A stretch of 20,000 nucleotides of DNA from an uncultured virus (IMG/VR IMGVR_UViG_3300043029_000019) (taxonomy: Duplodnaviria > Heunggongvirae > Uroviricota > Caudoviricetes), in IMG/VR virus record IMGVR_UViG_3300043029_000019, one strand, 5' to 3'. Made by a program: the position numbers and the translations under genes. Position 1 is the stretch's first letter. Each line of letters starts with the position of its first letter. The notes under the pieces were generated by a model. That model did not search any database. It was not told the origin of the DNA and saw only the letters and a list, made by a program, of their open reading frames with translations. Of this stretch, positions 1,889-19,506 are shown one piece after another.

Positions 1889-1974
1889 AAAACGCAAAAA
1901 GCCCGACCAAAACCGCAAAGGGTTAAGGATCGGGCTTCAAGGTCACCGAGGGAGTGGCGGGACCGTCAATCACC
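1889..1974 (-). terminator. Intrinsic-terminator-like hairpin with conserved upstream motif (copy B of a repeated cis-element)
   Basis: Minus strand: GGTGATTGACGGTC-N16-GACC-TTGA-AGCCCG...CGGGCT-TTTTGCGTTTT, ending about 7 nt before the ATG at 1881. Confidence 0.65.
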
Positions 1975-2007
1975 GTGGGCACTAAATTTTCAGATACTTT
2001 CCCATGT

Positions 2008-4296
2008 TTAAGCGGAAATGTCCAGTTTACATTCGAGCACAAAGGCAATCCGGCACCTGGCACTGGCGGTAAACTTGAGCTTCTTCCATCCGGCCCCGGA
2101 GAAACGGCTTGTCAGATCGATGTTAAGCTGATCGCCAGAATACCAGAGTGGTGTTCCATACCCTGCGCCATTATCGGTGTTGACCGTGATGCTTGGACTG
2201 TTGCTTTCTTCGTAGATGCCGAAATCTATGCCATGGGTATGATTGGGTATCGTAACATCGTGCGTATGAGCGCTTGGAGATTCAGAAGTAGGATTCACGT
2301 AATTCGTACCTGACGCTACCGCACTAACTAAAGAACTGCCATAAAGATAAACCTGCGCGTTGGTACCGCTATACGCGCCATCCAGCGAAAACACATGAGT
2401 ATGCCCGTTGACCTCTGTCGTGGTTACTTTTGCGCCAGAACACCTTAGGGTGTTTGAATCTGCATAGTAATTAACGTATGACTTGCCTACATAACTGTCT
2501 GTGTAATAGGCTCTTATTTCATGATTGTGTCCGTCAGATGTTTCAAGAGTAAAGTCATAATAGCCGCTCGTTGCCCCCCCTGATTTGTAAAGATACAGCT
2601 TGCCATCTTGGTTGCCATACATCAGCGTGTAGCCGGCTGAATAACTGTTGCCCACAATCTTCAATGTATGGTCGTGGGTTGGGACTGGTTCTTCGGTTGT
2701 ACTTTGCACAGATGAACCACCACTCAACGTGGTTGTTGAATAGGCACGATACGGCATAATTTTGAAAGACAATCGCACCGACTGAATCGCTGTCAGCTCT
2801 GATAACAGCAAAAACGGCACTTCAAAAGGATAGGAAGCATCGAGCGAATCCCACCCATTGAATATCAGCGAATTACGCAATTCATTGTATTTGCTTGCCG
2901 TGATGCTGTTGGCTGTGATCTTTCCACCGGAGATATTGGCAACCTTGGCATCGTCCACGGCCAAGTCCTTTATAGCGGCCCTACTTACCGTCAAATCTCC
3001 GATCAGGGCTTCGGAAATAATGACAGCCGGCGACCCGTCGACCGTTCCGACCATGAAGGGAATCGTCAGTGGTTCGCCTTCGCTTGCCGTCGGCTTGACG
3101 ATGGCGAATTTGTCGGCCAGCATGATGATCTCGGATTCAATCGGGCCGGATGCCCCGCCGGATACCGCCACTCCCATGCCGGCGATATGACCATTGGCGT
3201 TGACCTTGATGGTGTGTTCGGCCTCCAGGGTGCCGTCAGCGTTCGCCCGAGCCGTGGCCTCCGTCTGCACGGCGGTATGGGCTGCAGCTAGGCCTGTATC
3301 AGGATCCTCCACGGTTGCTTCGAGTAATGAAATGTCGCCAGCCATAGCACTGTCGGCATCGGCTCTTGCCGATTGTTCCGTGGTTATCGCGGCCTCGTTG
3401 TCTGAAATCCCCCCCTCTGCCGCCGTGACCCTGACCGCCAATGCTTCCCTCGCACTGGCTTCGGCCGAATCTGCGTTCGCCCTGGTCGTGGCCTCGTCCT
3501 GAACTGCGGAGTGCGCCGCGGCCAAACCGGTCGCCGGATCTTCAACCACAGATTGCAGCGTCGTTACGTCCTCGGCGATAGCGTTGTCGGCGCTCTGCCT
3601 GGTCGAGGCTTCGTTATTGACCGCCGCTTCACGATCCGTGACTTCCTGCGCCAGACTATCGATCAACCCCGTTCCCGGGGCGTCGATGTTGTCAATGCGG
3701 GTATTGAGTGTGGAGGCAAGGTGGCTTTCGGACAATTCCCCCTGCAGCAGCTCCAAAACATAGGTAGGTTCATCAGCCGTTGCCGCAGAGGTTCCTGCGG
3801 TGGCGTTGAACGGACCGATGATCGAGGCATCCCACCTGTTGATCGCCCGTACCCAATAGAAATAGGTCGTGGACATGGACGAATCCGGGGGGGTGTCGAC
3901 ATACTTCAAGGCACTGGTGGTGCCAATCTTGACCGCCGTGCCTTGGTCGTCCACCGTGTTACGGAATATCTCATAGTGCCCGATATAATCGCCAGGAGAG
4001 GCAACCCACTCCAGCATAATCTGGTTAAAGCCCCCCGTCGCCGTGAGACCTGTCGGTGCCGAGGGGATGGTGTAATCAGGAGCAAACAGATTCGCTTCAT
4101 TCATAGATTCCTGAATGGCCTGATTTAGCGTTTCCTCGTCCACCGTGGCCACCACTTCCGTGGTCAAACCTGACGAAATTGCCGCTGTCTCTTCCGCAAC
4201 CTGCTTCAGGTGCATGATCAGCGTCTGGATCGCCCGCTTTACTTCGGGATCGACCTTGGACGACAGACTTGGGGTGGTGATGTTGGATGCCGTCAT
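2008..4296 (-). CDS. Tail fibre/tail tip host-specificity protein
   Basis: 762 aa. N-terminal FN3-like domain (PSAPTGLTATGG...YFYWVRAIN...GPFN), coiled-coil repeats (EATARANAD), a DUF1983/gpJ-C-like segment (HTIKVNANGHIAGMGV...ADKFAI...PFMV), and a C-terminal region with five HxH motifs. Confidence 0.8.
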   Translation of the reverse strand: MTASNITTPSLSSKVDPEVKRAIQTLIMHLKQVAEETAAISSGLTTEVVATVDEETLNQAIQESMNEANLFAPDYTIPSAPTGLTATGGFNQIMLEWVASPGDYIGHYEIFRNTVDDQGTAVKIGTTSALKYVDTPPDSSMSTTYFYWVRAINRWDASIIGPFNATAGTSAATADEPTYVLELLQGELSESHLASTLNTRIDNIDAPGTGLIDSLAQEVTDREAAVNNEASTRQSADNAIAEDVTTLQSVVEDPATGLAAAHSAVQDEATTRANADSAEASAREALAVRVTAAEGGISDNEAAITTEQSARADADSAMAGDISLLEATVEDPDTGLAAAHTAVQTEATARANADGTLEAEHTIKVNANGHIAGMGVAVSGGASGPIESEIIMLADKFAIVKPTASEGEPLTIPFMVGTVDGSPAVIISEALIGDLTVSRAAIKDLAVDDAKVANISGGKITANSITASKYNELRNSLIFNGWDSLDASYPFEVPFLLLSELTAIQSVRLSFKIMPYRAYSTTTLSGGSSVQSTTEEPVPTHDHTLKIVGNSYSAGYTLMYGNQDGKLYLYKSGGATSGYYDFTLETSDGHNHEIRAYYTDSYVGKSYVNYYADSNTLRCSGAKVTTTEVNGHTHVFSLDGAYSGTNAQVYLYGSSLVSAVASGTNYVNPTSESPSAHTHDVTIPNHTHGIDFGIYEESNSPSITVNTDNGAGYGTPLWYSGDQLNIDLTSRFSGAGWKKLKFTASARCRIAFVLECKLDISA

Positions 4297-6191
4297 GCTT
4301 GCCTCAATTCGCGCATAGTCTCAGCCAAAAACACTTGGCGCACGGGAGCTGTCCCTGTGATTTCGATTTCAAAGAGTTCGCCACGGTATCCGGACGGGAG
4401 CCTAAAGGGGTTGCCGTTGGCCACTTCCTGCGTATGCTTGATGACGCCGTTAGAGAAAATAAGTTCGCCGTTTATGTCGTAGACGGATTCTTGCTCTCCT
4501 GCGTCGTTGATGGCGTAGAGTAGTTCGTCGTCTGCGCTGCTCCGAGAGTATATCTTCATAGTGACCGGGTACGCATCGGCCTTTACCTGGGCCGCACCTG
4601 GGTTGATCGGCAGAGGGGCTGGAAACGGACGACTCTTCCACACATAAGTCAGATTGCCGCTGCCGCCATCCCACTGTTTGATGTTGTCGCCCACCTGCAG
4701 GAACAGCTTGCCGGTCTTGGGATCCGAATAGGCCGCCGTGGCGTAGACATCGATTTCGACAAACGTCCCGTTGACCGGATCCAGAATAAACCCGCCCTGC
4801 TTGGTGCCAGTATTGTAAAAGCCGTAATACTTATTGTTGTGCCCTACCCCCAACAGCGATTCAGGCTTGTACGCCTGCCACTGGTCCCGGGTAAGGATTT
4901 CTGCGGTTGCCAGCTTGGCCACGCCTACCCCGATCAATACCGCGCCGTCGGTCGACGGGTAGACCGCCCCATAGCCAAGATCGGCCATGCCGCGCTTGGA
5001 CACGCATGGGTAATTCATTTCCATCTTTTCCGACAGCATGCCATTCGGGCTGGCACCGGTCAGCACATACGGCTGGGCTTTGGTCGCCACTAGCATAGAC
5101 GTCCCGAAGGCGCACAGGGCCACAGGGTCGTTAAACGCCTGCCGATAGCCAACCGGCCAGGCGTGATATTGATAGGGCTCACAGAAGCACACTTGATTGC
5201 CGGAAATACCCGCCATGCCTCCGTTGGGCAATTCGATCAAGCCATTCAGATCATCGGGCGGGGCCGCCCAGGTGGTGCTGGGTAACGATTCGCCAAGAGA
5301 GGCCGACTCCACATTGTCGACAAGTGTTGTGGTGCCGGCCACCACTTCCCCGACATACAGGTAATAACCGCCGTGGGTCCGGTAAATTCGCACCTTGACC
5401 ACGTTGTAATTGCCTTCCGGAGGCCCGGGAATGGCGCTCAGATCAATAACCTGGTCCGCGCCACAAGTGATAATGTCCGACGGATCCGACGGCGGGCCCT
5501 CTTCGCCGTAACCGGTCACATAGGTACAAACATAGGCGCGATCTTCCTTGTCGGCGTCGGCCCAAGCCCTCTGCCAGGTGCCGGCTGTAAAGGTGTCATA
5601 ATCGCTCGAATCGACGTTATCCAGGGTGAAGTTGTCGGTATCGATGACCGTTACCGGGCCTTCCCAACCGTCCAGATCAGTCATGCCGGTGACGTCCAAC
5701 AACACCCGCTGTCCGGTCGTGAGGCCGTGACCGGCACTTTCGACTTGGGCAGGGTTGTCCTTGGTGATCGCCGTAATGGTGCCGCCAGGCGTGACGGGGC
5801 TCAGTGTCGGGGCAACATCCGGAGCCGGCAAGCCGAGTTGCCAAGCGTTGGTGGGGTATTGGTCGCCGCCCGCCGTGGCGATACTGCTATCGGTGACCTT
5901 GGGCGTACCGTCGCCGGTAAAATAGGTGCGTTCCTGGGTATCTCCGGCAATCGCACCGCGTACCACGTCCACATCGGCCAGCCAATGAAACCAGAAAGCG
6001 TCAGCGAACAGATAGATGCTCTGCTTGGTCCCCGCCTTGGCCGGTACCGCCACCTGCAGCAAATCTCGAAATGCCTTGAGGTTGCCGCTTTCAAGGTTGC
6101 AATTCTGCGCGATTTGCGCCGCCTCCACGGGCAATAGGTCGGGGGAGAGCTTGGGAACGATCCCTTTGAACTGTTCGAGCTTGATCAGCAT
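4293..6191 (-). CDS. Tail tube/nozzle (head-stabilisation-type, beta-propeller) protein with an inserted E1-FCCH-like beta domain
   Basis: 632 aa. N-terminus FKGIVPKLSPDLLP..AAQIAQNC, YVCTYVTGYGEEGPPS, FCEPYQYHAWP, CVSKRG, WKSRPF and FRLPSGYR are typical of this podovirus tail protein. Follows the adaptor genes. Confidence 0.7.
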   Translation of the reverse strand: MLIKLEQFKGIVPKLSPDLLPVEAAQIAQNCNLESGNLKAFRDLLQVAVPAKAGTKQSIYLFADAFWFHWLADVDVVRGAIAGDTQERTYFTGDGTPKVTDSSIATAGGDQYPTNAWQLGLPAPDVAPTLSPVTPGGTITAITKDNPAQVESAGHGLTTGQRVLLDVTGMTDLDGWEGPVTVIDTDNFTLDNVDSSDYDTFTAGTWQRAWADADKEDRAYVCTYVTGYGEEGPPSDPSDIITCGADQVIDLSAIPGPPEGNYNVVKVRIYRTHGGYYLYVGEVVAGTTTLVDNVESASLGESLPSTTWAAPPDDLNGLIELPNGGMAGISGNQVCFCEPYQYHAWPVGYRQAFNDPVALCAFGTSMLVATKAQPYVLTGASPNGMLSEKMEMNYPCVSKRGMADLGYGAVYPSTDGAVLIGVGVAKLATAEILTRDQWQAYKPESLLGVGHNNKYYGFYNTGTKQGGFILDPVNGTFVEIDVYATAAYSDPKTGKLFLQVGDNIKQWDGGSGNLTYVWKSRPFPAPLPINPGAAQVKADAYPVTMKIYSRSSADDELLYAINDAGEQESVYDINGELIFSNGVIKHTQEVANGNPFRLPSGYRGELFEIEITGTAPVRQVFLAETMRELRQA

Positions 6192-6193
6192 GG

Positions 6194-6826
6194 TTACCCC
6201 TTGGTCTGTGTCGCCATACGGATCCCGAGCACCTGGGCCATGGCCTGATAGTGGGCTGCGGATTTTGAAGCACTGCCGGCCTCCGTCTCTTCGCCGTAAG
6301 CGCGGTACAGAACGTAATCCAGCAAAGCGTTGGCATATACATCACGTACCGTTATGACAGAGTCTACACTTGCCGGATCGGCGGGCAATACACCATAAAC
6401 AGATTCGATCTTGTGGGAGATATCAGGCTGCGGAGGGACCGTGAAAAAAGTAACGGGATCCTCTTTGTCGTAGCCGACGAAAAGCACCTCCCCGTCGCCC
6501 GTCATGGCGCTCCACTCAGGAAAAAGAGTTTGGAGAGTAGTCATGTCAAACATTTCGATGGAACGCCCTGGCGTGATCCCATCGGCGCCCATGTTACGCA
6601 CCGGACGCACAAGACCGGTCGCGCCGTCAGGCAAGGTCTGCTTACTACCGGCCACCAGTGTTACATTTCCCGTCACCGTGCAGGCATCAGGCTTGAGGGC
6701 CGCGATCTCTCGCTGCCCGTCTTTGAGGTAGTCGAACAGGGTTGTCTGAGTCCAGCGTACAGCGCCGGTATCCTGGAGTTGTTTACCCGCCTTGGTGAGA
6801 ATCGCACTGCAAAGAATATCCCCCAT
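6194..6826 (-). CDS. Head-tail adaptor protein (DUF6682-like)
   Basis: 210 aa; LQD...VRWT..L.DYL.DGQREIA..KPDA, GSKQTLP, NALLDYVLYRAY and HYQ motifs; GGAGG RBS. Confidence 0.65.
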   Translation of the reverse strand: MGDILCSAILTKAGKQLQDTGAVRWTQTTLFDYLKDGQREIAALKPDACTVTGNVTLVAGSKQTLPDGATGLVRPVRNMGADGITPGRSIEMFDMTTLQTLFPEWSAMTGDGEVLFVGYDKEDPVTFFTVPPQPDISHKIESVYGVLPADPASVDSVITVRDVYANALLDYVLYRAYGEETEAGSASKSAAHYQAMAQVLGIRMATQTKG

Positions 6827-6840
6827 GGATCAACCCTCCG

Positions 6841-7446
6841 TTAGAACCAGCAGCCCGACGTTCTACGCCGTCCCGCCTTGCGTTTGGGTAGAATAGAATC
6901 GACCTCGCCGGCCATGAACAGCATGAACGCCTGATCGACGGCAAAGGCGCTACCCGCCGCCGCACCACGAACAATGGCCTCCTTGAACACTTCATCGAAC
7001 ATGCCGTTGTACGGAAGGGTATCGGTGATGGCCGTGACCCTGGCCGGAGCCTGCCAGTATTCGCCGATCACCGTACAGGGCTCTGCGGGAACCGGATACA
7101 GCAACAGGTTAAGACCGCGCAGATCGTACCGCTCAGGCGTCCCCGTTTGCCCGTAATAGGCCGCCCGCCTCTGCGCCTGCAACGGTTCCAGGGGCTTTAC
7201 CATGGTCGTCAGTTGCGGTTTGTCGGCCAGGCCGCGGCAATCGGTCGGCAGGATCTTCGAGGCATCGGAGGCCGCGAATTCAAGGCTATAATCTTGCTTC
7301 ACAAGATCACTACCCTTGTTGACCAAATACCGAAACAGCACATCCATGCTGGCGTTGACCGCCTCGATGGCGCTCATGGCCGGTTTTGGGATCTGTTTCA
7401 GGCGTGGGGCCGTGGCCTTTACCAAGTCAAGCACTGTCGTTGCCAT
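6841..7446 (-). CDS. Putative head-tail connector/adaptor protein
   Basis: 201 aa; GTPERY...LLLYPVP adaptor-like motif; GAGG RBS; position before the tail genes. Confidence 0.55.
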   Translation of the reverse strand: MATTVLDLVKATAPRLKQIPKPAMSAIEAVNASMDVLFRYLVNKGSDLVKQDYSLEFAASDASKILPTDCRGLADKPQLTTMVKPLEPLQAQRRAAYYGQTGTPERYDLRGLNLLLYPVPAEPCTVIGEYWQAPARVTAITDTLPYNGMFDEVFKEAIVRGAAAGSAFAVDQAFMLFMAGEVDSILPKRKAGRRRTSGCWF

Positions 7447-7453
7447 GGTTACC

Positions 7454-7597
7454 TCATTGTCCGGGTAAAAGGATGGTGCAGAGACGCCAGCCGCAATAAC
7501 CGGCCGAAGCGATCAGTGAAGACAGCAGGGTTAAGGCAAAGATCCCGCTCACCAGCAAAGCGCCGGGGCGTGGGTGATTGCGCGTCCATGGGCTCAT
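7454..7597 (-). CDS. Small membrane protein (47 aa)
   Basis: Hand translation: MSPWTRNHPRPGALLVSGIFALTLLSSLIASAGYCGWRLCTILLPGQ; AAGGAG RBS; one hydrophobic helix; tiles the gap exactly. Not in the ORF track. Confidence 0.55.
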   Translation of the reverse strand: MSPWTRNHPRPGALLVSGIFALTLLSSLIASAGYCGWRLCTILLPGQ

Positions 7598-7599
7598 GG

Positions 7600-7767
7600 T
7601 CAAAGCTCCTTTCCGTCAATCGTCCACTCGCAACCGCATTCCGGGCAATACAGCACTTCGTCCGGTCCTTCCCCGCGAATGCGCAAATAGGCATTGCAGG
7701 GTTTAACCATCTTGAACGGGCCGTCACCCTGCGGGCGTTTTAAGGGGCAGCGGGTCAATTCATTCAT
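7600..7767 (-). CDS. Small Cys-rich (zinc-ribbon-like) protein (55 aa)
   Basis: Hand translation: MNELTRCPLKRPQGDGPFKMVKPCNAYLRIRGEGPDEVLYCPECGCEWTIDGKEL; start overlaps the stop of 7760..8041. Confidence 0.55.
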   Translation of the reverse strand: MNELTRCPLKRPQGDGPFKMVKPCNAYLRIRGEGPDEVLYCPECGCEWTIDGKEL

Positions 7768-8041
7768 CGGGAAACCGCTGTTCAGTACCGCACTGCCAGC
7801 ACAAAAGACTTCCAGACTTTCCGCTTATCGTGAACAACCAACATCCACAGTTGCATATCCAGGTCGGTTCTGGAACAACTCCGTTAACCAAAACGGACTT
7901 AAAGGTTCCGCATTCCGGGCATTCCATGTCTTTGAAGACGCCTACTGGAACAACGGCTTGGTAAGTATGGCCGCAGTTGATGCACTTCGCTTCGCCTGAC
8001 AGGTGCGGAGATCTTGATAGAATGTCGACTACCTCACCCAT
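7760..8041 (-). CDS. Double zinc-ribbon protein
   Basis: 93 aa with CINC, CPEC, CNCGC and CWQC motifs. Confidence 0.65.
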   Translation of the reverse strand: MGEVVDILSRSPHLSGEAKCINCGHTYQAVVPVGVFKDMECPECGTFKSVLVNGVVPEPTWICNCGCWLFTISGKSGSLLCWQCGTEQRFPDE

Positions 8042-8047
8042 GATTGT

Positions 8048-8464
8048 CTACAACACCTCGCAATTTGGCATGTCCCATTGCTTGGCCATGTGCTCGATAA
8101 TCGGAATAATCTCTTCATCGCCTTCGGCCTTAGCCCTAGCGATACACTCGGCCGCCGAGGTCGGAATAACATGATAGGAAACGGAACAGCCGATTTTCCC
8201 GGACTCGTCAATCCATTCCTGCCGTCGCTTTGCCGTGGTGTTTGTGGCGTCCACTATGATCTTGTCATGACCGGCAAGGAACAAAGACCGAACCATATAC
8301 TTGGCCGTGGTCCACACCATCGGTTCAGCATCGTGGATAAAACGCTGGCCATGAATGGCCAAACGGATACTGTCAGGATTGACAATCGGGATCTCCTGCT
8401 GTTTCGCCCATGTGGTTTTTCCGGATCGTGGAAGTCCCACGGTCAAGATCAGTTCTTTCGGCAT
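8048..8464 (-). CDS. P-loop kinase, AAA_33/polynucleotide-kinase-like
   Basis: Walker A GLPRSGKTT, NPDSIR, IIVDATN and ECIAR motifs of the stand-alone PNK kinase domain. Confidence 0.8.
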   Translation of the reverse strand: MPKELILTVGLPRSGKTTWAKQQEIPIVNPDSIRLAIHGQRFIHDAEPMVWTTAKYMVRSLFLAGHDKIIVDATNTTAKRRQEWIDESGKIGCSVSYHVIPTSAAECIARAKAEGDEEIIPIIEHMAKQWDMPNCEVL

Positions 8465-8780
8465 GTTCCCTCTCTCTCAACATCAGTTCCAAAACCGCCA
8501 GATTTCCCCAGGCCCGATGGGCCGCATGCAGCAACCCGCTTTCCTCGTCCGTCACCTTCCCTGCAGCGTCGGCCAGATCGTGCCGCAAGCGGGCATCGTC
8601 ATAACGCCCCTTGGCATCCTCGATGCTATCCCAGGTATCCCAGCCGTGGTTCGAGGCGCCGTGTTCATTGACGCGGGCAATCTCCTCGATGGCGCGAGGG
8701 AAATAACGCAACACCGAATGGATATACGGCTTGCCAGCGTCGTACTTGGCACCGGCCCCGCGGCGGTCATTCTTTGCCAT
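8373..8780 (-). CDS. dATP/dGTP diphosphohydrolase-domain (DUF5664-like) protein
   Basis: Likely start ATG 8780 (MAKNDRRGAGAKYDAGKP); GAKYDAGKP, RY.DA.LRH and DEESGLLH.AH.AW signature. Confidence 0.75.
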   Translation of the reverse strand: MAKNDRRGAGAKYDAGKPYIHSVLRYFPRAIEEIARVNEHGASNHGWDTWDSIEDAKGRYDDARLRHDLADAAGKVTDEESGLLHAAHRAWGNLAVLELMLREREHAERTDLDRGTSTIRKNHMGETAGDPDCQS

Positions 8781-8913
8781 GGTGTTTTCCCTTGGCCTTG
8801 TGCCGGGTATAGATAATACCGCGTTGCCCGTTCCCGAGGCGTTCACAGACCTCGCAGGGCGTTTTGTCCAGTGGCTGCCCCTCGTATGCACAGGTGCTGC
8901 AGTTGATGGCCAT
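8767..8913 (-). CDS. Small CxxC-x11-CxxC protein (48 aa)
   Basis: Hand translation: MAINCSTCAYEGQPLDKTPCEVCERLGNGQRGIIYTRHKAKGKHHGKE; starts 6 nt after the upstream stop. Not in the ORF track. Confidence 0.55.
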   Translation of the reverse strand: MAINCSTCAYEGQPLDKTPCEVCERLGNGQRGIIYTRHKAKGKHHGKE

Positions 8914-8918
8914 ATCGA

Positions 8919-9434: not shown

Positions 9435-9491
9435 GGGTTCAGTCCTCCTGAACTTGTGTAGGGGCGAGTTCCCCCGCCCCATGATTTAGGG

Positions 9492-9929: not shown

Positions 9930-9950
9930 GGTTCTATCTCCTTGGATAAG

Positions 9951-9969
9951 GCCCCGGTTGCCCAGGGGC
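9951..9969 (-). promoter_or_regulatory. GCAA-tetraloop hairpin between capsid and decoration genes
   Basis: Minus strand GCCCCTGG-GCAA-CCGGGGC with no strong U tract; possibly an mRNA stability or partial termination element. Confidence 0.4.
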
Positions 9970-9996
9970 GCTATGCTGTTACGTTACGCAGCTACC

Positions 9997-11106: not shown

Positions 11107-11127
11107 GGGTTCATCCTTTCTGTGTGC

Positions 11128-11141
11128 GGCACTCCAGCGCC
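11128..11141 (-). promoter_or_regulatory. GGA-loop hairpin upstream of the capsid RBS (candidate CsrA-type operator)
   Basis: Minus strand GGCGC-TGGA-GTGCC (5 bp, one G-U pair), followed about 10 nt later by the SD AAGGATG. Confidence 0.5.
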
Positions 11142-11150
11142 AGGGTTAAT

Positions 11151-11327: not shown

Positions 11328-11333
11328 GGTCTG

Positions 11334-12380
11334 TTACCTCCCTGCCAAATAGCGTTCCTGCTGTGCCGGTGTCATTTTCTCCAGCGCCGTTTCCAGATCC
11401 ACACCGGTCAGCTTGTCCAGGTGGGCAAACTCGCTATTGTTGGCCTTCGGGTTTTCCACACCAGCGGCCGGCACATCGCCGAGGTTCGGGGCGTCCGGAG
11501 CCTTGGACTTGGGCTTGGCAGTTTTTTGACCCTTGTTTTTCTTGCCGCCCGCGTCGGGCTTGGGCTTTTCGGGAACAAATCCAAATGCTTTTTCCACATT
11601 GGACTTGGCCTGTTCCAGAATCTGCATATGGCCCATATTGCCGATCTCACCAGCCTGCACCATGCGTTTCACTTCGCTGTCCAGGGCGGCAAACTTGGTC
11701 GGGTTGCTCTCCTGGGTATAATCCTTGTGCTGGGACAGGAAGACGGTGACCGCTTTGCCCCAGCGCCGATTCTCGGTCTCCTGCATGCGCTGCTGATAAT
11801 CGTCCGACTTGATCTTGTCCACCTGCTCGTCATACTCGGCGGGCGACAGCTCACCATCGTTGAGTTTTTCGCGCAGGTCTTTGATCTGCTCCTGTGCCGC
11901 ATCGGAGTAATCGAACGGATTGACCGGTTCTTCCTTGTCGTCGTATTCGACCGGTTCGGGATCAGCATCCCCGTCGTCAGGTTCATCTCCTTCGGGACTT
12001 TCCTCGTCGGGGTCGTCCCCATCATCGGTGTCCTGCTCTTCGCCTTCATCGTCTTCGGCATCTTCGCCGTCGGGGTCGTCGCCCTCTTCTCCGACATCAT
12101 CCCCTTCGGGAGCCCCATCCTCCCCGCCTTCATCGTCTTCGGCATCTTCGCCGTCGGGGTCGTCGCCCTCTTCTCCGACATCATCCCCTTCGGGAGCCCC
12201 ATCCTCCCCGCCTTCATCGTCTTCGGCATCTTCGCCGTCTTCCTCCCCGTCATCGTCGGGCAGGTCGACCGGGGAAGCCGTGGCGGTCAGTTCAGCTTCG
12301 TCCACGTCGGCCTCGATGGCGGCGCGTTCCTCTTCCGACAAACTGGCCAATTCCTCATCGCTGTATCCGCTGGTGCTCAT
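11334..12380 (-). CDS. Capsid scaffolding protein (highly acidic)
   Basis: 348 aa; D/E-rich N-terminus; C-terminal PNLGDVPAA...EFAHLDKL.G.DLE.AL.KM...QQERYL; lies between portal and capsid. Confidence 0.75.
   Translation of the reverse strand: MSTSGYSDEELASLSEEERAAIEADVDEAELTATASPVDLPDDDGEEDGEDAEDDEGGEDGAPEGDDVGEEGDDPDGEDAEDDEGGEDGAPEGDDVGEEGDDPDGEDAEDDEGEEQDTDDGDDPDEESPEGDEPDDGDADPEPVEYDDKEEPVNPFDYSDAAQEQIKDLREKLNDGELSPAEYDEQVDKIKSDDYQQRMQETENRRWGKAVTVFLSQHKDYTQESNPTKFAALDSEVKRMVQAGEIGNMGHMQILEQAKSNVEKAFGFVPEKPKPDAGGKKNKGQKTAKPKSKAPDAPNLGDVPAAGVENPKANNSEFAHLDKLTGVDLETALEKMTPAQQERYLAGR
12041..12239. repeat. Perfect in-frame 84-bp tandem repeat (about 2.4 copies)
   Basis: Units start at 12041, 12125 and 12209; encodes EDAEDDEGGEDGAPEGDDVGEEGDDPDG. 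Confidence 0.95.
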
Positions 12381-12404
12381 GCTCCGTGCTCCTTTCGCTT
12401 TCCG

Positions 12405-14594
12405 TTATTGGTTGTTGTTCTGCGCAGGGATCCCCCGCGCTGCATCGTCCATAATATCGTCTGCCATGGTCCCAAGTGCCGGGGTCGCATGCAATGCCGA
12501 GGAAATCTCCAGAGCCTGCTTCATGCCGTCGAGCTTTTCGGTGAGGGCCTTGGCCATAGATGTGTTGCCCTTACCTAAGGCTTCCTTGGCCTCGCCTTCC
12601 AGTTTTTCAAGTTCAGCCATGACTTTACGCATCTGCAGTTCCTGATCCTGCTTCTGCTGTTCGTCAAGTTCCGCCTTTTCTTCCTCGCTCAACTCTTCAT
12701 CGTCTGGCCGCTGCCCGGTGATCTTGCGAACCCTTGCCACCACTTCATCACGCATCGGGATGTCGGCCATTTCCAAAGCAATATCCAGCAAGGCCATGGC
12801 CGCCTGTGCCATACCTCCTTGCGCCAGCGCCGTGATCAGTTCCATCATTGTTTCGTACATGGCCTGACGGACACTAGTGTGATATGCCCGCTCGTCAATA
12901 ATGAAATCGGCCTTGGCCGCTGTAACCGGATTTAGAACCTCTCCACCATCGGCATTTTCGTTGATCGTTGTGTATTCCGGATTACCACGCTCGTTGGTCA
13001 GCCGGAATGTCTTTTCCTCGTCGTAATACTGCTCGACCAGGCAAAGCTGCTTCTCGCCGGAGATTTGCCGCGCCAAGCGCAGATTGTCGAACAGATCCAG
13101 CGTTGTAAGGCTGCCCTGTTCCTGCCGCCGTTCAATGGCCGCGCCACTGACAGCATTGGTCTTGCGCCCCATCAGTTCATCGGTGACGCCGGATACCTCG
13201 GAAATGTATTGCGCATCCTGGCCCATCAGATTCACATACTCTTCGGCCAGGGTTTTATCGTTGCGGATCTCCAGGTTCTTATTCGACTTTTTAAAGATGA
13301 TGCCGTCCGGCCGCGCCACCTCTTCGGCCAGTTCGTCCACGTCGTCGACGGCCCCTTCATCGGCTATGACCTGGTTGGTGGCCAGAATAAACTGCGCCTT
13401 GGAACGGGCTTTATTCAGGTCAACCTGGGGATCGCGCAGGTTGCGCACCGCACCGTAAGGGGCGTTGTCGCGCTTGCGCCGATAGCCCCAAACAGGAGTG
13501 AGTGGAAAACGGTTGTGCCAATAAGGAAGCGGTCCTTCGTGCAGTAATTCACCGTCGAATGCCTTTTCGGTTTCCATTCCGGAGGGTGCGGTAAAGATCA
13601 TGTGCCGCATCACCATCATCATGCGATTGCCGACAATGGGAGCCAGGCCGTTCTCCACGGCCCACACAAGCACTTGGTCCTGCTTGTTGTACCAACAGCC
13701 TCGAAAAGGACCGTTGCCGCCGAGAATCTGCACCACTTCAGGGTTTTTGTACCAGCACTCGACCAAACGCACACGTTGGCGCCGGGTGCCGTCGCCGTTG
13801 GGAATATTGTCGACATAAGCGGTACGCGACTCGCCCACCACGCGCAGATCGTCATCGTCCATGCCGGTCAGATAAGACTGATTCTCAGCCGCTGCCTCCA
13901 AGACCCTCTCATGCCCCTTGAACAGCATCTTGGCCACGTCCAGATCGATGGACCGGCTGCGGAACAGGAAACGGGCGTCGCTCATGTCCGGCTCGACGCT
14001 CAGGTGGTCGTAATGAACGTTGCGCCAATTCTCGTAACGCACGAACAGCTTTTCCTCTAGAGGGTTGGGGTTGATCCCCTCTTCCACCCAGCCGACCCCA
14101 GCCGATACGCCATCATCGAACGCTCGGGACCATATTGAACGCTGGCGATTAACGTCATGCACGTATTTCAGCAACTTGGTCTTGCTCTCGGCACCATCAG
14201 CATCTTCCTTGCCGCGGGGAACCACCTTGAAATCGACGCGGGTGCGCTTTTCGCTGCCGGTGATCCAGGCGATGGCCGGCTTGATCTTGTTGAACACCAG
14301 CGGCGCCTGATTGCGGTCGCGCAGGGCCTGAATTTCATCTTCGGTCCACTGAATGCCGTCGCGGAAATCCTGATCTGTTGCCATCTCGACTCGGTTGTCC
14401 GACTGATAATCACGCTCGTCGATGTAGCGACACAGCATCTGCGTGAACCGTTTTTGCACTTCTTTCTTCTGCAAATGAGCCTTGGACCTGAGCGCCTGCG
14501 GAACAGGCTGTGCAGCCAAAAGTTCAGCCTCTTTGTCTACCCATGGCTGGCGGGCTTGGACTGTGCGTACATTCTCGATCTGCGCTTGATTCAT
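12405..14594 (-). CDS. Portal protein, P22-like
   Basis: 729 aa; DFRDGIQWT...R.Q.PLVFNKIKP, G.GWVE, PYG.VR.LRDPQ.DLNK, SG.AIERRQEQG and a C-terminal coiled-coil barrel. Confidence 0.9.
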   Translation of the reverse strand: MNQAQIENVRTVQARQPWVDKEAELLAAQPVPQALRSKAHLQKKEVQKRFTQMLCRYIDERDYQSDNRVEMATDQDFRDGIQWTEDEIQALRDRNQAPLVFNKIKPAIAWITGSEKRTRVDFKVVPRGKEDADGAESKTKLLKYVHDVNRQRSIWSRAFDDGVSAGVGWVEEGINPNPLEEKLFVRYENWRNVHYDHLSVEPDMSDARFLFRSRSIDLDVAKMLFKGHERVLEAAAENQSYLTGMDDDDLRVVGESRTAYVDNIPNGDGTRRQRVRLVECWYKNPEVVQILGGNGPFRGCWYNKQDQVLVWAVENGLAPIVGNRMMMVMRHMIFTAPSGMETEKAFDGELLHEGPLPYWHNRFPLTPVWGYRRKRDNAPYGAVRNLRDPQVDLNKARSKAQFILATNQVIADEGAVDDVDELAEEVARPDGIIFKKSNKNLEIRNDKTLAEEYVNLMGQDAQYISEVSGVTDELMGRKTNAVSGAAIERRQEQGSLTTLDLFDNLRLARQISGEKQLCLVEQYYDEEKTFRLTNERGNPEYTTINENADGGEVLNPVTAAKADFIIDERAYHTSVRQAMYETMMELITALAQGGMAQAAMALLDIALEMADIPMRDEVVARVRKITGQRPDDEELSEEEKAELDEQQKQDQELQMRKVMAELEKLEGEAKEALGKGNTSMAKALTEKLDGMKQALEISSALHATPALGTMADDIMDDAARGIPAQNNNQ

Positions 14595-14601
14595 CGTCGC
14601 C

Positions 14602-14997
14602 TCAGTTCAGAAGGTCTTGCCGGAAGGATTTGCCGTTCATTTTCCCGGTTATCTCGCCCACTACCTGCCGCTCACGCTTCGGAGCTGCAGGAGCATGCAC
14701 CAACTCGTCAAGATGGTCCTGGACGTAAAACGCGATATGGGACAAGGTAGATTCGTCTGTCGGATAATCCAGCGCCCCGGCAATGTTGCGGCAGGCCAGC
14801 AGCACCGCCATTTGATCGTTCCTGTTTTCCGGTTCGTTGTACTTCCACGCCGATTCCAGCGGAATAATGGCCGACCGCCCAAGATACCCGGGACGGTATA
14901 GAAACAGGGCTGGCTGCTCTTTATGGGGCTGTTCCGGGTCCAGAGCAAAGTGAATGATCTTGTGGGTCAAATCACCTGTCAGATTGATACCGGCCAT
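14602..14997 (-). CDS. Phage hypothetical protein preceding the portal
   Basis: 131 aa; start overlaps the upstream stop (TAATG); GGAGGG RBS. Confidence 0.65.
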   Translation of the reverse strand: MAGINLTGDLTHKIIHFALDPEQPHKEQPALFLYRPGYLGRSAIIPLESAWKYNEPENRNDQMAVLLACRNIAGALDYPTDESTLSHIAFYVQDHLDELVHAPAAPKRERQVVGEITGKMNGKSFRQDLLN

Positions 14998-15248
14998 TAG
15001 CTATCCCTCCGCGTAAAATGCCGCCACAGGCGAACATACCAGGGCGCGACGGGCTTCTTGCAGGCCACCTTGCCCTCGCACTTGAGAACAATACGATCCC
15101 GAGAAACGATCTTTTGTACCCGCCACAAAGCGCCGTTGACCTCCCACACTTCCCCGCGCACTACCGGAGCAGCGTCGAGTTTGCGGTGTCCCAGCAGCAT
15201 TTCACGCTGCTTGGCGTCCAGGGGATTCGTGCAGCCCTTGCTTTTCAT
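14997..15248 (-). CDS. Hypothetical protein (83 aa)
   Basis: Translationally coupled on both sides (ATGA / TAATG); small beta-rich domain. Confidence 0.55.
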   Translation of the reverse strand: MKSKGCTNPLDAKQREMLLGHRKLDAAPVVRGEVWEVNGALWRVQKIVSRDRIVLKCEGKVACKKPVAPWYVRLWRHFTRRDS

Positions 15249-15871
15249 GCCAGTGCCCCCAGGTCGTTGCCGTCCTTATGCGGAAAATCGCGGTGATCGA
15301 CCGTCGAACCGTTAACCATGATCCGGCTGCCAAGCTCGATACGGGCCGACAGCAGCATCTTGTCACCGCGTTTGACACCGATATAGGGCGGGTTCTGGTT
15401 GTTCAGCACGACGCGCAGGGGATCAGCAGCGGCCACAACCGCACCAGGCTCCAGGTTCTCCAACTCGGCCGGGTCAATATCAACGCTGGCAACAACTTCG
15501 ACTTTGCCGAAATCCTCATACCCTTCGACCAGCGGCGCCAGGGCATGCACGGTATTACGGAACAACACGTCTTTGGCCTGTTGCTCTTTGGGCAACTGAT
15601 CGAACGGAACCATGCAGGGGTGGGTCTTGGCCGTACCGTCCTTCTCTTCGCCGAATACCCAGCCGTCAGCCTCTTTCTGTGCCATCCAGCTTTCATGGCT
15701 GGCCTGCGGTCCTGCGTTAGGGTTGTCCAGATGGAACTGAACTCCCGCAATAGCGCTTTCCTTCTGCCACTTCGGAGCGTAATGCCAGCTTTTCTGGCTG
15801 TCGTCGCCCAGGGCTTGGCAGTATTCGCGGTTGGCTTCGTGGCAAATTTCGGCGATCTGTTCAACGGTCAT
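15245..15871 (-). CDS. RyR (ryanodine-receptor repeat) domain protein with a C-terminal extension
   Basis: HESWMAQKEADGWVFGEEKDGTAKTHPCMVPFDQLPKEQQAKD matches the RyR domain signature (H..W...K...GW.YG...D...K.HP.+VP+..L...++.KD). Confidence 0.8.
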   Translation of the reverse strand: MTVEQIAEICHEANREYCQALGDDSQKSWHYAPKWQKESAIAGVQFHLDNPNAGPQASHESWMAQKEADGWVFGEEKDGTAKTHPCMVPFDQLPKEQQAKDVLFRNTVHALAPLVEGYEDFGKVEVVASVDIDPAELENLEPGAVVAAADPLRVVLNNQNPPYIGVKRGDKMLLSARIELGSRIMVNGSTVDHRDFPHKDGNDLGALA

Positions 15872-16145
15872 TGGCTTTGCTCCCTTTGATATAGCCTTCG
15901 GCCAGCTTGATTGCGGCCTCCGAGTCGGTCATGTCCACTGGCACCATGACCTTAACTGTCAATACGGATTTGCGATAAAGAGCTGTCGTAAAGTGGCAAT
16001 ACTCAGGCGTTAAAGCCTCGTCTACTCCAACCCTAAAAGGTTTATGTCTACCCGCCGCCTCTACGGTATCCATGCGGCTATCAACCAAGTTAATCTGCCC
16101 AGCCGCGATTCCCCCGACGAACAACAGCCTTTCCATATTCGGCAT
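15861..16145 (-). CDS. Hypothetical protein (about 94 aa)
   Basis: Likely start ATG 16145 (MPNMERLLFVGG) after an AAGGGG RBS; overlaps the RyR gene start. Confidence 0.5.
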   Translation of the reverse strand: MPNMERLLFVGGIAAGQINLVDSRMDTVEAAGRHKPFRVGVDEALTPEYCHFTTALYRKSVLTVKVMVPVDMTDSEAAIKLAEGYIKGSKANDR

Positions 16146-16155
16146 CCTTGCCCCC

Positions 16156-16557
16156 TTACTCGTTACACGCAATCGCGGCATTGGCCCACATGACCGCTTG
16201 CCGCACATTCAAAAGCGCCTCAGTCCGTTCAATTCCGGGCGGGCAGAACTCTTCAATGAGTGTGGCCAGTTCCTTCCCGGCTTCGCGGATCTTCTGGTAG
16301 CGCTCCACCTGGTCGCCCTTGGGGGGATGATGGGTAAACAGATTATTGAGTGCGTCGTCTCGCTTCTGTTCCCGTCTCTCTTTGGCTTTTTTCATGTGCT
16401 TATGGTGCAGCATTTCTGCAAGACCGTTATAATCGCTTGCAGTCGCTCCGAAACCACACAGACTGCAATGGGCAGACGCTCCACCGTGCCCATATTCGGG
16501 TTCTACAACCTCAAGCAACCCTCCGCACTCAGGACAACCAAGGATCTTTTCAATCAT
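16156..16557 (-). CDS. Zn-ribbon fused to an Acb2/Tad1-like helical hairpin domain (candidate anti-defence nucleotide sponge)
   Basis: Likely start ATG 16557 after AGGAGAGG. N-terminal CPEC...CSLC; C-terminal FTHHPPKGDQVERYQKIREAGKELATLIEEFCPPGIERTEALLNVRQAVMWANAAIACNE, whose A.MWA..A+ ending resembles Acb2/Vs.4. Confidence 0.65.
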   Translation of the reverse strand: MIEKILGCPECGGLLEVVEPEYGHGGASAHCSLCGFGATASDYNGLAEMLHHKHMKKAKERREQKRDDALNNLFTHHPPKGDQVERYQKIREAGKELATLIEEFCPPGIERTEALLNVRQAVMWANAAIACNE

Positions 16558-16570
16558 GGCTTCCTCTCCT

Positions 16571-18079
16571 TTACGCTGTCTTCCAGCTTCCCTTCTTACG
16601 CCTGCGGCTTCCTTTGGTGGCCGGCACATACCGATACCCGCGGGCCAGTGTTTCCAGTGCGTCATAACCGTGCATCGCCCAATCGTGCCGCGGGCGGTTC
16701 TTCCAGCATCCGTTGTGGTCGTCCCATTCGCGCCGGAAGTTGTCCAGACACTTGATCCCTTCGCTGCAGGACTCTTCATCGAACCAGCATGTTGGCAGGA
16801 ATTGCCGCGTCTCCTGGATCGCCGTGTACTTATCGTCAATCCTGGGGACCACGACGATGTTTTGCATATTGGCGTCGGACAGGATCTGTTCAATGGTGCG
16901 CGGTTTTTCGTCGGCGCTCTTGGTGGATCCCATACGGCGCTGGCCGGCATCGTGCGGCAGAAAGTGTTGCCCCCAGATGTAACCGAGCCTTTGCATCTCC
17001 CGCCAGTAGTACAAAACGTCATCGTCGGATCCGGTCATATAGCCGATGATCCGGTTTTCCAGTCCCACCCGCTGATGGAACCAGATGCACATAAGGTCGT
17101 TGAGGCCGAAGTCCCAGGCGCTGTTAACCGGTATGCCAGGCTCATGCGGCACCGTGGTAATGCGTACATCCTTACGAAGCTTGGCCATCTGCTTGGCCAG
17201 ATAGGCCCCCTCGATGGCGGCGGCAAATGCTTCTTCGGGATAGCTGGGATGTTCTCGGGTCATATCGTCCTGCAACGTCTTGAGCTTCTCGGCGTACCAG
17301 GCTTTCTGAAACGGATCGAGCTGGACACCGGTAATCGCCTCGATCTCGGCAAAATACTTGGCCAGTTCCTTGGTAATGACCACGCCTTTCGGATTCAGCC
17401 GCTTACGAGGATCTTCCCACCAAGCGAAGAAATGCAGCTTGTACTGCAGCTTATTCGGCTTTTGCCCTGCCTGCTGCCGTTTCAAGGCCTCCATGCAGTA
17501 ATCGTAAAAGTAGCCGTCGTTGCCTTCAGCGGTGCTTTCGATAAAGATCATGTTGCCGGGGTGGACTGTTTCCAGGGTGCCGGTGACAATCTCCCGGGCC
17601 TTCTCGGGGAATTTGGCGCACAGCTTGCCGAACTCGGAGATATGCACCATCTGATAGGTGCCTGAACGCAAACTTGTCCCGACCTCGATCATGGACCCGT
17701 TCCCAAACTTGAGCTTCTTCGCGCTTTCGGTATCGGCCGGACGTGCGTTTTTCAACCCATCAGGAAGCTCGTCGTAGGGGAATTGCACCTTCTTTTCGTG
17801 GATCTTCTCCACGTCTTCCCGGGTATGGGCGTTGATACCCACCGAGTAATGATCCCGAAACAGCGCCTGATCCAAACCGAAAATCCCCAAAAAGGTGGTG
17901 AAACCCAACTGGCGGGCCTTAAGGATCAGGTTGAGGTACCACAGGTTTTCAATGAGCGTGGTTTGCGCTGCGTTCGGCCTGAACGGGGTCTTTTTGCCGT
18001 CCTCGTTCACGCAGTAATACAGGTTGTGCAGTCTCCACATTGGAGAGCTGAAATTTTCAATCAACTCAACGCGATTCAT
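16571..18079 (-). CDS. terL: Terminase large subunit
   Basis: 502 aa; Walker A ILKARQLGFTT, Walker B VHISEFG, motif III ESTAEG, nuclease WDFG, LPHDA and HDWAMHGYDA. Confidence 0.95.
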   Translation of the reverse strand: MNRVELIENFSSPMWRLHNLYYCVNEDGKKTPFRPNAAQTTLIENLWYLNLILKARQLGFTTFLGIFGLDQALFRDHYSVGINAHTREDVEKIHEKKVQFPYDELPDGLKNARPADTESAKKLKFGNGSMIEVGTSLRSGTYQMVHISEFGKLCAKFPEKAREIVTGTLETVHPGNMIFIESTAEGNDGYFYDYCMEALKRQQAGQKPNKLQYKLHFFAWWEDPRKRLNPKGVVITKELAKYFAEIEAITGVQLDPFQKAWYAEKLKTLQDDMTREHPSYPEEAFAAAIEGAYLAKQMAKLRKDVRITTVPHEPGIPVNSAWDFGLNDLMCIWFHQRVGLENRIIGYMTGSDDDVLYYWREMQRLGYIWGQHFLPHDAGQRRMGSTKSADEKPRTIEQILSDANMQNIVVVPRIDDKYTAIQETRQFLPTCWFDEESCSEGIKCLDNFRREWDDHNGCWKNRPRHDWAMHGYDALETLARGYRYVPATKGSRRRKKGSWKTA

Positions 18080-18702
18080 CCTCTTGAAACTTCTGTTACA
18101 AGCGCCCTTTCAATTGGCCAACCCCTTCTTATTCTGTTGCGCACGAGGTAATAATCTAGGCCGGCATTTTCTGCCAATTCGGCCAAGCTTTTTATTGCAC
18201 CTCGATACTCAACCAACTTGGTTCCCCTCCTATTCCTCATTTGCTCTTTTTGGGATGCCCATCGACAATTACTTGGTGCGTAATTTCCATTCACATCAAT
18301 CCGGTCAAGTGAATATTCAGAGCCGGGCTTCTCTCCCATGTCGGACAAAAAAGCCTCAAAGCTATTTCTCCACCTAGAGCAAACCTTTATGCCGCGTTCA
18401 CCGTAATGCTTGAATTTCTCCGAGCCGACTCTTTCACACCGGTCAATCATTCCAGTCCAAGCCTTGTACTCGGGCGTCCCCACTCTTCCATGAACAGAGA
18501 GCCTTTCTTTGCTTTTCTCGTTTCGCAAGCAGCCGCAACTTCTTGTGTCACCGTTTCGCAAAGACTGGCCAACTATTTCCGCCCGCTCGCCACAGTCACA
18601 CAGGCAAATCCAAGTTAGGTGTCCATTCCGATTTCTTTGCCCCTTCGCTACAACCAACAGCCGTCCAAACCTTTGGCCGATAAGATCAATAAGCTTGCCC
18701 AT
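18076..18702 (-). CDS. HNH-type (homing) endonuclease-like protein
   Basis: GQRFGRL, WICLCDCG, SCGC, YGERGIKVC.RW, F.AFL.DMG and SLDRIDVNGNY.PSNCRWA..KEQ.RN motifs; more AT-rich than its neighbours. Confidence 0.85.
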   Translation of the reverse strand: MGKLIDLIGQRFGRLLVVAKGQRNRNGHLTWICLCDCGERAEIVGQSLRNGDTRSCGCLRNEKSKERLSVHGRVGTPEYKAWTGMIDRCERVGSEKFKHYGERGIKVCSRWRNSFEAFLSDMGEKPGSEYSLDRIDVNGNYAPSNCRWASQKEQMRNRRGTKLVEYRGAIKSLAELAENAGLDYYLVRNRIRRGWPIERALVTEVSRG

Positions 18703-18728
18703 TGCGAACTCCTTCGCCTCACAATTTC

Positions 18729-18786
18729 AGCAGCGGCAGCGGAGGTGAGTAGGCTCCGTTTTCGCCTGGCCAGACTAGCCGCTACT
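18729..18786 (-). promoter_or_regulatory. Predicted three-way-junction RNA structure in the HNH gene leader
   Basis: Outer stem AGTAGCGGC/GCCGCTGCT enclosing GTCT-GGCC-AGGC and CGGAG-N9-CTCCG hairpins. Confidence 0.45.
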
Positions 18787-18798
18787 ATTCTTAATTTT

Positions 18799-19416
18799 TC
18801 ATTCACCGTCCTTGACCAGGCTGGCATTGCGCTGCGCAACTTCGTCCAGGACGGATTCAAGGTCGGAAACCGGGCCCTGCTTCTCGTCCAAATTGAAGGC
18901 TTGACGTTCAAGCGCGATCAGGTTTTTCATGGCCGTCGACAGGTCGCGGATGGTCCCAGCATGCCCCGGGAGGGAAACGGCCCGAAGCATTTGGTTGCGG
19001 CGCTTGACGTTGCTGTCACCGGCTGTCTCATCTTCAATGGCGTCCTCGATCTCGTCGCGGTTGGTTGCGGCTTCTTCGAGTTGCCCCATAAGGAGGCCAA
19101 CCAAGGTACGACCGTGATTTATGTCCTTGCGGTGAAGCCTGATAACTTCGGCCCCGCGTTCTGCAGCCGCCTCGACAACCTCGGCTTCGTTAACACTCGC
19201 GTTACCCTTGTTAACCTCTGTGTTAACCAGCTTAGCGTTAACCGCTTTTCGTACCTGGTTGCTCAGGTCGCGGTTCCACCCCTCCTTTTTGGCTTTCTTG
19301 GTGATTGCAGGAGCGGATACGCCGTATTCCCGACCGATTTCACGAATAGACAACTGGCCGGCGCGATACTCACGCTCAACGGCTTCCCAATCGATCTTTT
19401 TACGTTTATCTGCCAT
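18799..19416 (-). CDS. terS: Terminase small subunit
   Basis: Likely start ATG 19416 (MADKRKKIDWEAVEREYRAGQLSIREIGREYGVS..AI.KKAKKEGW.R, an N-terminal HTH); C-terminal LIALERQAFNLD; upstream of terL. Confidence 0.8.
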   Translation of the reverse strand: MADKRKKIDWEAVEREYRAGQLSIREIGREYGVSAPAITKKAKKEGWNRDLSNQVRKAVNAKLVNTEVNKGNASVNEAEVVEAAAERGAEVIRLHRKDINHGRTLVGLLMGQLEEAATNRDEIEDAIEDETAGDSNVKRRNQMLRAVSLPGHAGTIRDLSTAMKNLIALERQAFNLDEKQGPVSDLESVLDEVAQRNASLVKDGE

Positions 19417-19426
19417 TGTCCCGCCC

Positions 19427-19506
19427 AAAAAAAAACAAAAGCCCGGCAAAAGCCTTTCGGCCTGCCGGGCTCCCGGTCGCATCCTCCTGGAGGACCGTGA
19501 ATCACC
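19427..19506 (-). terminator. Intrinsic-terminator-like hairpin with conserved upstream motif (copy A of a repeated cis-element)
   Basis: Minus strand: GGTGATTCACGGTC-N14-GACC-GGG-AGCCCGGCA-GGCC-GAAA-GGCT-TT-TGCCGGGCT-TTTGTTTTTTTTT, ending 10 nt before the terS ATG. Confidence 0.75.

Follow-up and report, generated by a model that had tools for sequence, protein, structure and literature searches.

Late-gene region and the architecture of cassettes A and B

The DNA analyzed here (hereafter the window) is a stretch of 20,000 nucleotides (nt), bases 16942-36941 of the 37,163-bp IMG/VR record IMGVR_UViG_3300043029_000019 from an uncultured virus (estimated completeness, 61%), and it contains two copies, cassettes A and B, of an intergenic element in which a conserved box and a small hairpin stand directly before an intrinsic terminator and the start of a gene block. 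The genes of the window all lie on the minus strand. In the order of transcription they begin with a small open reading frame (ORF), the small terminase subunit gene terS, an HNH endonuclease gene, and terL, continue with a P22-type portal, a scaffold-like protein, and the major capsid protein, and then pass through SU10-type adaptors, an internal virion/tail protein, and a tail-fibre-like protein to virion proteins without assigned function. Outside the window, the record (G000) holds ORFs of 498, 4544, and 105 amino acids (aa) and an amidase gene; the product of the 4544-aa ORF (G000:C1:2282-15916, minus strand) resembles the giant virion protein that Bcep22-like phages carry. The portal was approximately 43-46% identical to those of the Bcep22-like podoviruses DC1, BcepMigl, Itty13, POI1126, Parlo, and Gervaise, and the gene synteny agreed with that of DC1. 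Judged by its genes, the stretch represents late DNA from an uncultured member of the Bcep22-like phages.

A preliminary description had placed the two copies directly before two late-gene blocks, each with a strong predicted terminator to be read through, and both positions held. The first gene past cassette A is terS (18799-19416, minus strand; PHROG 1206, E 5e-57). Cassette B follows the tail-fibre gene and precedes the internal-virion block, whose first gene (1489-1881, minus strand) encodes a 130-aa protein of PHROG 610, function unassigned; the label of GNAT given to this block was not sustained, as the 130-aa protein had no Pfam family at E up to 10 and no PDB sequence match.

In both copies the box GGTGATT[C/G]ACGGTCC is followed by a bulged hairpin (hairpin 1), a spacer of 3-4 nt, an intrinsic terminator, and the ribosome-binding site (RBS) and ATG of the next gene. 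Direct reading confirmed every detail of the shared minus-strand architecture as first described and extended the box by one base, so that A and B are identical at 14 of 15 positions rather than 13 of 14. Box A, GGTGATTCACGGTCC, occupies 19492-19506 (minus strand, as do all parts of both cassettes), and its 3'-terminal 6 nt double as the 5' arm of hairpin 1 (19474-19497; GGTC, 14 nt, GACC), for which the minimum free energy (MFE) fold gave nine pairs, 3'-side bulges, and an AGGA loop. The spacer GGG leads to terminator A (19427-19471), which has the stem AGCCCGGCAGGCC/GGCUUUUGCCGGGCU at 19471-19440 with the base AGCCCGG...CCGGGCT, a predicted energy of approximately -28.7 kcal/mol, and a U tract at 19440-19427 (letters UUUUGUUUUUUUUU); the terS ATG, at 19416, is 10 nt past this T tract. 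Box B, GGTGATTGACGGTCC, at 1960-1974, runs into a hairpin 1 at 1941-1964 (GGTC, 16 nt, GACC) that was read from the sequence as GGUCCCG paired with CGG(U)GACC, with a single bulged U and a 9-nt loop; the MFE fold of the isolated piece favours another pairing. Here the spacer is TTGA, and terminator B (1889-1936, approximately -20 kcal/mol) comprises the stem AGCCCGAUC...GGUCGGGCU at 1936-1900 and the U tract UUUUGCGUUUU reaching to 1889 (letters UUUUUGCGUUUU), with the next ATG, at 1881, 7 nt past the T tract. At both A and B the interval from U tract to ATG leaves space for an RBS alone, and the distance from box start to ATG was 89-93 nt in five copies. The isolated-piece folds of the two cassettes had z-scores of -3.4 and -3.5.

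The degenerate 14-mer of the box matched the window exactly at two sites; the other six of its eight matches carried two or three mismatches, and 3.5 matches at up to three mismatches were expected from shuffles. In the whole 37,163-bp record the 14-mer matched twice at one mismatch or fewer, both times on the coding strand, and a reversed control pattern gave 0 matches. A covariance model, R1, was trained on three A-type sequences only (those of the window and of the relatives L062 and L030). As had been proposed as a check, the model was run on its own record, where it made three matches in total, recovering copy B (28.6 bits, E 3e-6) and detecting a third site, copy C, outside the window at G000:1971-2057 (minus strand, 30.6 bits). 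Copy C comes next after the 4544-aa gene and precedes the 105-aa ORF that stands before the lysis genes. It has a terminator of AGCCCGG/CCGGGCU (-22.7 kcal/mol), a small hairpin of GGACC/GGU(G)CC with a 3' bulge, and a degenerate box, GGAUUCUGACGG, that agrees at approximately 10 of 15 positions and retains GAUU and GACGG. We conclude that the cassette is a real, non-random feature of this genome.

Terminators A, B, and C each combine a GC-rich hairpin with a U tract on the transcribed strand, as the sequence definition of an intrinsic terminator demands. In hairpin-plus-U-tract scans of the whole record they were the only intergenic coding-strand sites at or below approximately -19 kcal/mol, the remaining sites falling within ORFs, and they are the sole strong predicted coding-strand terminators in a run of co-directional late genes that spans at least 37 kb. 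Logan contigs were polymorphic in T-tract length at A. A scan of IMG/VR for the terminator tail CGGGCTTTTTGCGTTT yielded at least 117 matches; among the 117 listed, 58 shared the AGCCCG arm and one, carried by a relative, had the box. The AGCCCG...CGGGCT-U-tract half, which had been put forward as part of a specific system, is thus generic and present in many unrelated phages. Because it is generic, the likeness of the A and B terminators carries little weight, and it is box and hairpin 1 that support the finding. A scan for A-type terminators that did not require the box returned the same four contigs only.

Conservation of the box and hairpin and mosaic junctions at the cassettes

The cassettes were compared with their counterparts in diverged relatives. 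Across the span from the box through the terminator stem, copy A of L062 had a single difference from the window; the surrounding 631-nt segment was 79.4% identical, the module upstream of terS approximately 79-90% identical, and TerS itself 48% identical in aa sequence. In L030, L044, and L112, the small upstream gene orf60 was 68-70% identical and the leader that follows it barely alignable; all 15 box positions, the base of the hairpin, and the lower part of the terminator stem were unchanged, and the differences within cassette A of L030 and L112 were confined to the two loops or the upper stems. Box A is therefore invariant in L062, L030/L044, and L112. In hairpin 1 of L030 a U-A pair was changed to C-G and the AGGA loop to UUCG. 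Copy B of L114 carried approximately six changes within flanks that were 78% identical, none of them in the box or the hairpin stem, the sole change to hairpin 1 being in its loop; box B was invariant in L114 and identical in L088 and L089. The single difference between the boxes, C in A and G in B, was the same in every lineage, indicating that A and B have been kept apart for long. When six sequences were aligned, 95.7% of cells paired, versus 25-49% with the partners slid; helix 2 (the terminator) had 100% of its cells paired, and five pairs had changed on both sides. The early impression that the loops diverge while box and stems are kept was borne out, also in diverged relatives, as for homologous modules under selection. 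On the evidence of these alignments, the box and hairpin 1 are under constraint.

The cassette is narrowly distributed. The phage itself was traced to metagenomes from oil fields, wastewater, and aquatic sites, and no RNA run was listed among the data sets that contain it. An exact scan of IMG/VR for the box identified 55 loci, of which six, on five contigs, had the architecture and the other 49 resembled chance matches within genes. With the pattern of box plus GACC plus AGCC, three of 21 loci in JGI metagenomes were real (L100, L112, and L114), and none of 10 loci in GTDB species genomes, all of which were coding-like and without terminator. The copy A region had no blastn match among 50,697 phage records, and R1 found nothing above 16.1 bits in five whole cultured Bcep22-like genomes and nothing above 10.3 bits in five more distant IMG/VR relatives. 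Among the best 21 of 30 terS-related loci examined (L079-L087, nine short weak matches, were left out), two had the box. The expectation that related phages would share the box thus held within a narrow metagenomic clade, where it is invariant, and failed for the five cultured phages, the five distant contigs, and the GTDB genomes. Several relatives had plain terminators right before terS, and one of them, G005, had four strong terminators directly before late-gene RBSs, that of terS included, without a common upstream motif. Since box-less terminators stand before late genes in relatives, punctuation by terminators appears to be a habit of the family and the box a trait of one small clade.

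The comparison with Rfam, another check that had been suggested, returned no family for the cassettes: cmscan gave nothing at either one at E up to 1, with int-alpA as the sole match in the window, and nothing at E up to 5 in L112, L062, L127, and L114. In literature searches, no such motif was found to be described for Bcep22-like phages; the paper on JC1 lists, in its accessible part, predicted terminators only (PMC9144972).

Comparisons among close relatives show that the cassettes coincide with crossover points of mosaic exchange, a role as recombination junctions that the preliminary description had not considered. A conserved island around cassette B, at 1840-2035 (minus strand), emerged from comparison with G003 and L089, in which 149 of the 150 positions counted across 1840-1989 were identical. 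Identity of G003 to the window was 99.6% over terS plus cassette A, 92-96% in most structural genes, and 78% in the block after cassette B; the tail-fibre gene was non-homologous in its C-terminal part. One Logan contig in each of two runs, from one study, leaves the window at 2017, and a contig of run X6 had 3 differences in 1076 positions over terS-A-orf60 versus 111 in 1033 in terL.

These junctions bear on the possibility that A, B, and C are plain attenuator or insulator terminators produced by the duplication of one cassette, in which the box has no trans partner and is kept as a recombination linker at module borders, with read-through leaky or set elsewhere. Island B, lying between a non-homologous tail-fibre gene and genes of 78% identity, would be explained in this way, as would the departure at position 2017, the sharp contrast within the X6 contig, and the 48% identity of TerS in L062 against approximately 79-90% in the upstream module; the generic terminator half and the box-less terminators at comparable places in G005 point in the same direction. 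There is also a precedent, as the accessible text of one study of T4-like phages describes the PeSL elements as conserved cassettes at points of module exchange (PMC4122927). According to the available parts of two reports, PeSLs are short, repeated stem-loop terminator cassettes at module borders where unrelated genes are exchanged, and they carry an early promoter and occur in the hyperplastic regions of large myoviruses (PMC4122927, PMC2839356). The present element shares with them the conserved cassette at junctions of differently diverged sequence; it differs in lacking a detectable promoter, early or other, in having two to three copies, and in lying between core late-gene blocks of a podovirus. 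Recombination alone leaves unexplained why 15 nt and a hairpin base stayed fixed in three lineages while loops and spacers diverged, and why the A-specific C and the B-specific G were maintained across lineages. We consider a pure linker role rather unlikely.

Candidate control of terminator read-through

A promoter scan of the window produced eight promoter-like sites, compared with 9.8 expected from shuffles, and none was near the cassettes. As no promoter fits or is detectable between terminator and ATG, the downstream genes are probably expressed by read-through, and terS and all later genes would require passage of A, then B, then C. The only promoter-like motif of this kind in an intergenic coding-strand position, TTGCAT-17 nt-CAGACT, is located just upstream of orf60, at 19833-19861 (minus strand). 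This motif, a consensus match only, was kept in three lineages and has TGG just upstream; in L112 it is situated inside the end of the methylase gene. The unit of orf60, leader, cassette A, and terS follows the DnaB and methylase genes on the same strand in L112, and terminator A there thus divides replication from morphogenesis genes.

The gene orf60 (19618-19800, minus strand) encodes a small conserved protein of 60 aa directly upstream of the leader. Identities in L062 and L112 ranged over 68-90%, and the gene was seen only in contigs that bear cassette A. The protein had no Pfam or PHROG family and was represented by only three clusters in a set of 5.8 billion proteins; comparison with the Atlas returned unnamed viral clusters only, with scores of at most 0.85. 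Its AF2 model, a long helix plus a beta hairpin, was of low confidence (pLDDT 67), which was insufficient for a fold search. The leader, lying between orf60 and box A, contains a cloverleaf-like RNA (19543-19605, minus strand) with an 8-bp closing stem and three hairpins; compensatory changes and the consensus fold of the window and L062 were consistent with this structure, and the whole leader had a z-score of -3.8. The cloverleaf had no Rfam match, and a tRNA or tRNA-like element was rejected because ARAGORN found 0 genes in the window. A small hairpin at 19520-19533 follows the cloverleaf RNA.

Each copy of the cassette may be a nut-like recognition site that controls terminator read-through in the late mRNA, the reading that we favour, tentatively and as somewhat short of probable. 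The cassette would then consist of a clade-specific, sequence-constrained single-stranded box, GGUGAUU(C/G)AC; a small hairpin, bulged on its 3' side, into which the box continues; a strong intrinsic terminator of generic type 3-4 nt further on; and the RBS and start codon of the following gene block. A phage or host factor would read box and hairpin in the nascent RNA and decide whether RNA polymerase passes the adjacent terminator; when the factor is absent, the terminators would act as insulators of the late blocks. Secondarily, module exchange could use the conserved cassettes as crossover points. The antitermination or attenuation system named in the preliminary description is retained here as a hypothesis.

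The layout of lambda nut is likewise a single-stranded box followed by a hairpin. With nut (boxA plus boxB, N, and Nus factors), the cassette has in common that a conserved single-stranded box and a small hairpin lie upstream of terminators that must be passed, and that the element is repeated in one genome with near-identical boxes and different flanks. In sequence, the box GGUGAUUSAC is without likeness to boxA (CGCUCUUA-like) or boxB, in agreement with what had first been noted, and the GNRA-like pentaloop of boxB contrasts with the variable cassette loops (AGGA, UUCG, or 7-9 nt). The nut sites are early and promoter-proximal, whereas the cassettes belong to a late operon and abut each terminator at 3-4 nt, one per terminator.

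Several observations weigh against a nut-like function. Processive antitermination needs one site per operon and not one per terminator, yet the site recurs at every strong terminator of this late operon. Hairpin 1 stands only 3-4 nt before the terminator stem and would thus allow a very short kinetic window, unlike nut, qut, and put. No trans-acting factor emerged, and the 25 proteins scanned included no N-like candidate, in a record that is 61% complete and without the early region. The box is degenerate in copy C, occurs in one very narrow metagenomic clade only, and is missing in other family members; the box-less terminators of G005 imply that read-through in the family is not generally box-dependent. 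The variants behind the six-sequence alignment number three for A, two for B, and one for C, so that the covariation is thin, and the alignment was fitted to the model. Finally, recent recombination, and not selection, may account for some of the apparent conservation.

Two further systems resemble parts of the arrangement. HK022 put is also a two-stem-loop nascent RNA that acts in cis on polymerase; it is approximately 70 nt long, neither of its stem-loops is a terminator, and it lies well upstream of the terminators (PMC9378689). No match of the cassette to put was found in sequence or at the level of Rfam. The conAn system of pLS20, as set out in the accessible portion of its description, combines long operons containing several internal intrinsic terminators with an antitermination system (PMC8191782). 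The same portion describes a small protein gene followed by a structured RNA at the start of a very long operon, to which orf60 and the cloverleaf leader would correspond, and no need for a box at each terminator; conAn has no sequence relationship to the cassette (PMC8191782). That orf60 and the leader might play a role akin to conAn is pure conjecture. A more specific proposal, in which box and bulged hairpin would form a terminator-by-terminator antitermination signal that gives each terminator of the approximately 40-kb late operon its own sequence-specific pass, read by a factor perhaps made up of the orf60 protein and/or the cloverleaf RNA, would describe a bipartite system with no described relative; we think it doubtful.

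The box might instead mark a site of mRNA processing or stability. The RNase III sites of T7 and the RNase E sites of T4 also stand between late-gene blocks of polycistronic phage mRNA as conserved structured elements in which a single-stranded, AU-containing segment adjoins a hairpin, and at the T4 RNase E site the downstream stem-loop plays a role. Those sites are not known to be fused to intrinsic terminators. In read-through transcripts of the present phage, an RNase E-type cut at the single-stranded G/AUU of the box would leave hairpin 1 and the terminator hairpin as a protective 5' end for the downstream RNA, stopped transcripts would gain a protective 3' hairpin, and the stabilities of the blocks would differ. 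The core common to A, B, and C, a single-stranded GAUU followed by ACGG and a hairpin, is in keeping with this, as is the constant distance from box to ATG. Against it, RNase E would require far less than 15 conserved nt for its specificity, and C or G occupies the box position at which the motif has A or U. The motifs RAUUW and RNWUU are those proposed for RNase E in the accessible part of a preprint (bioRxiv 10.1101/2020.07.22.216051). In our judgment a processing site is unlikely.

A signal at the level of DNA was also weighed, namely an ops-like pause or loading site, or an operator, at which the non-template strand would be read by a NusG-type or other regulator that alters RNA polymerase just before the terminator. 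At 12-15 nt the box is as long as ops, it is placed at the start of long gene blocks, and GGTGATTSAC|G fits the elemental pause pattern G(-10)...Y(-1)G(+1) by eye. By the same kind of inspection only about 5-6 of 12 positions match the ops consensus GGCGGTAGnnTG; moreover, no NusG paralogue was found in the 37 kb examined, and the conserved hairpin 1 would be left unexplained, which makes this reading quite improbable. Least credible, and very improbable in our view, is that the box acts as a promoter, or as the beginning of a small RNA gene, with a transcript that starts in or near it and ends at the terminator, as for the 6S RNA from lambda PR'. The PR'/tR' arrangement of lambda provides a precedent, copy B contains TTGACG, and approximately 60 nt upstream of box B are also conserved; no copy has an acceptable -10 at the right spacing by eye, the consensus scan gave no promoter at the box, and no common motif lies upstream of A, B, and C.

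Taken as a whole, the cassette suggests a read-through control point in a small group of uncultured Bcep22-related phages. It appears to be of a known kind in being a terminator-built conserved cassette at module borders, and new in its box and hairpin, which have no Rfam or database match. We found no statement in the literature on the timing or balance of late-gene expression in Bcep22-like phages, and a signal at every strong late terminator would offer a handle on this control. Should a factor exist, the cassette would be a compact and portable part, a conditional terminator. Even on the plainest reading, it is a conserved regulatory cassette at module-exchange points outside the T4-like phages. 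Only a handful of metagenomic contigs yielded it, and its reach is accordingly limited.

Rejected candidates and neighbouring features

Other interpretations of the cassette sequences were tried and rejected. For a sigma-70 promoter in or near the box, there was no acceptable -10/-35 pair by eye and none from the promoter scan. When pairing partners for the box were sought in the loops, in the U-tract region, and past the stop codon of orf60, AAUCAC/GUGAUU was formed in one MFE fold and was lost in L062 and L030 (by eye). An ORF through cassette A, starting from an ATG at 19482 in frame with terS, had its frame broken in L112. A CsrA-type GGA loop in hairpin 1 occurred in the window and L062 only, and not in L030 or copy B, and a GANTC methylation site in the box was present in A and C and not in B.

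The HNH gene (18076-18702, minus strand) lies between terS and terL, and immediately upstream of it, at 18716-18785 (minus strand), is the int-alpA RNA (Rfam RF02996), whose 46.6 bits exceeded the gathering score. G003 and a Logan contig of run X6 fuse approximately position 18180 straight to approximately 18797, and HNH gene plus int-alpA therefore look like a mobile insertion. In Logan contigs of runs X3 and X5, the window intervals 8057-8462, 12137-12253, and 15886-16157 are swapped for 14-31 other letters, so that relatives have small indel or replacement differences in the genes of a kinase-like and the scaffold-like protein and in a small ORF. At the upstream end, an ORF with a helix-turn-helix-like stretch at 19830-20000 (plus strand) runs to the end of the record and diverges from the AT-rich region upstream of orf60; in L112 the genes at this place are instead co-directional replication genes (DnaB and an MT-A70-type methylase).

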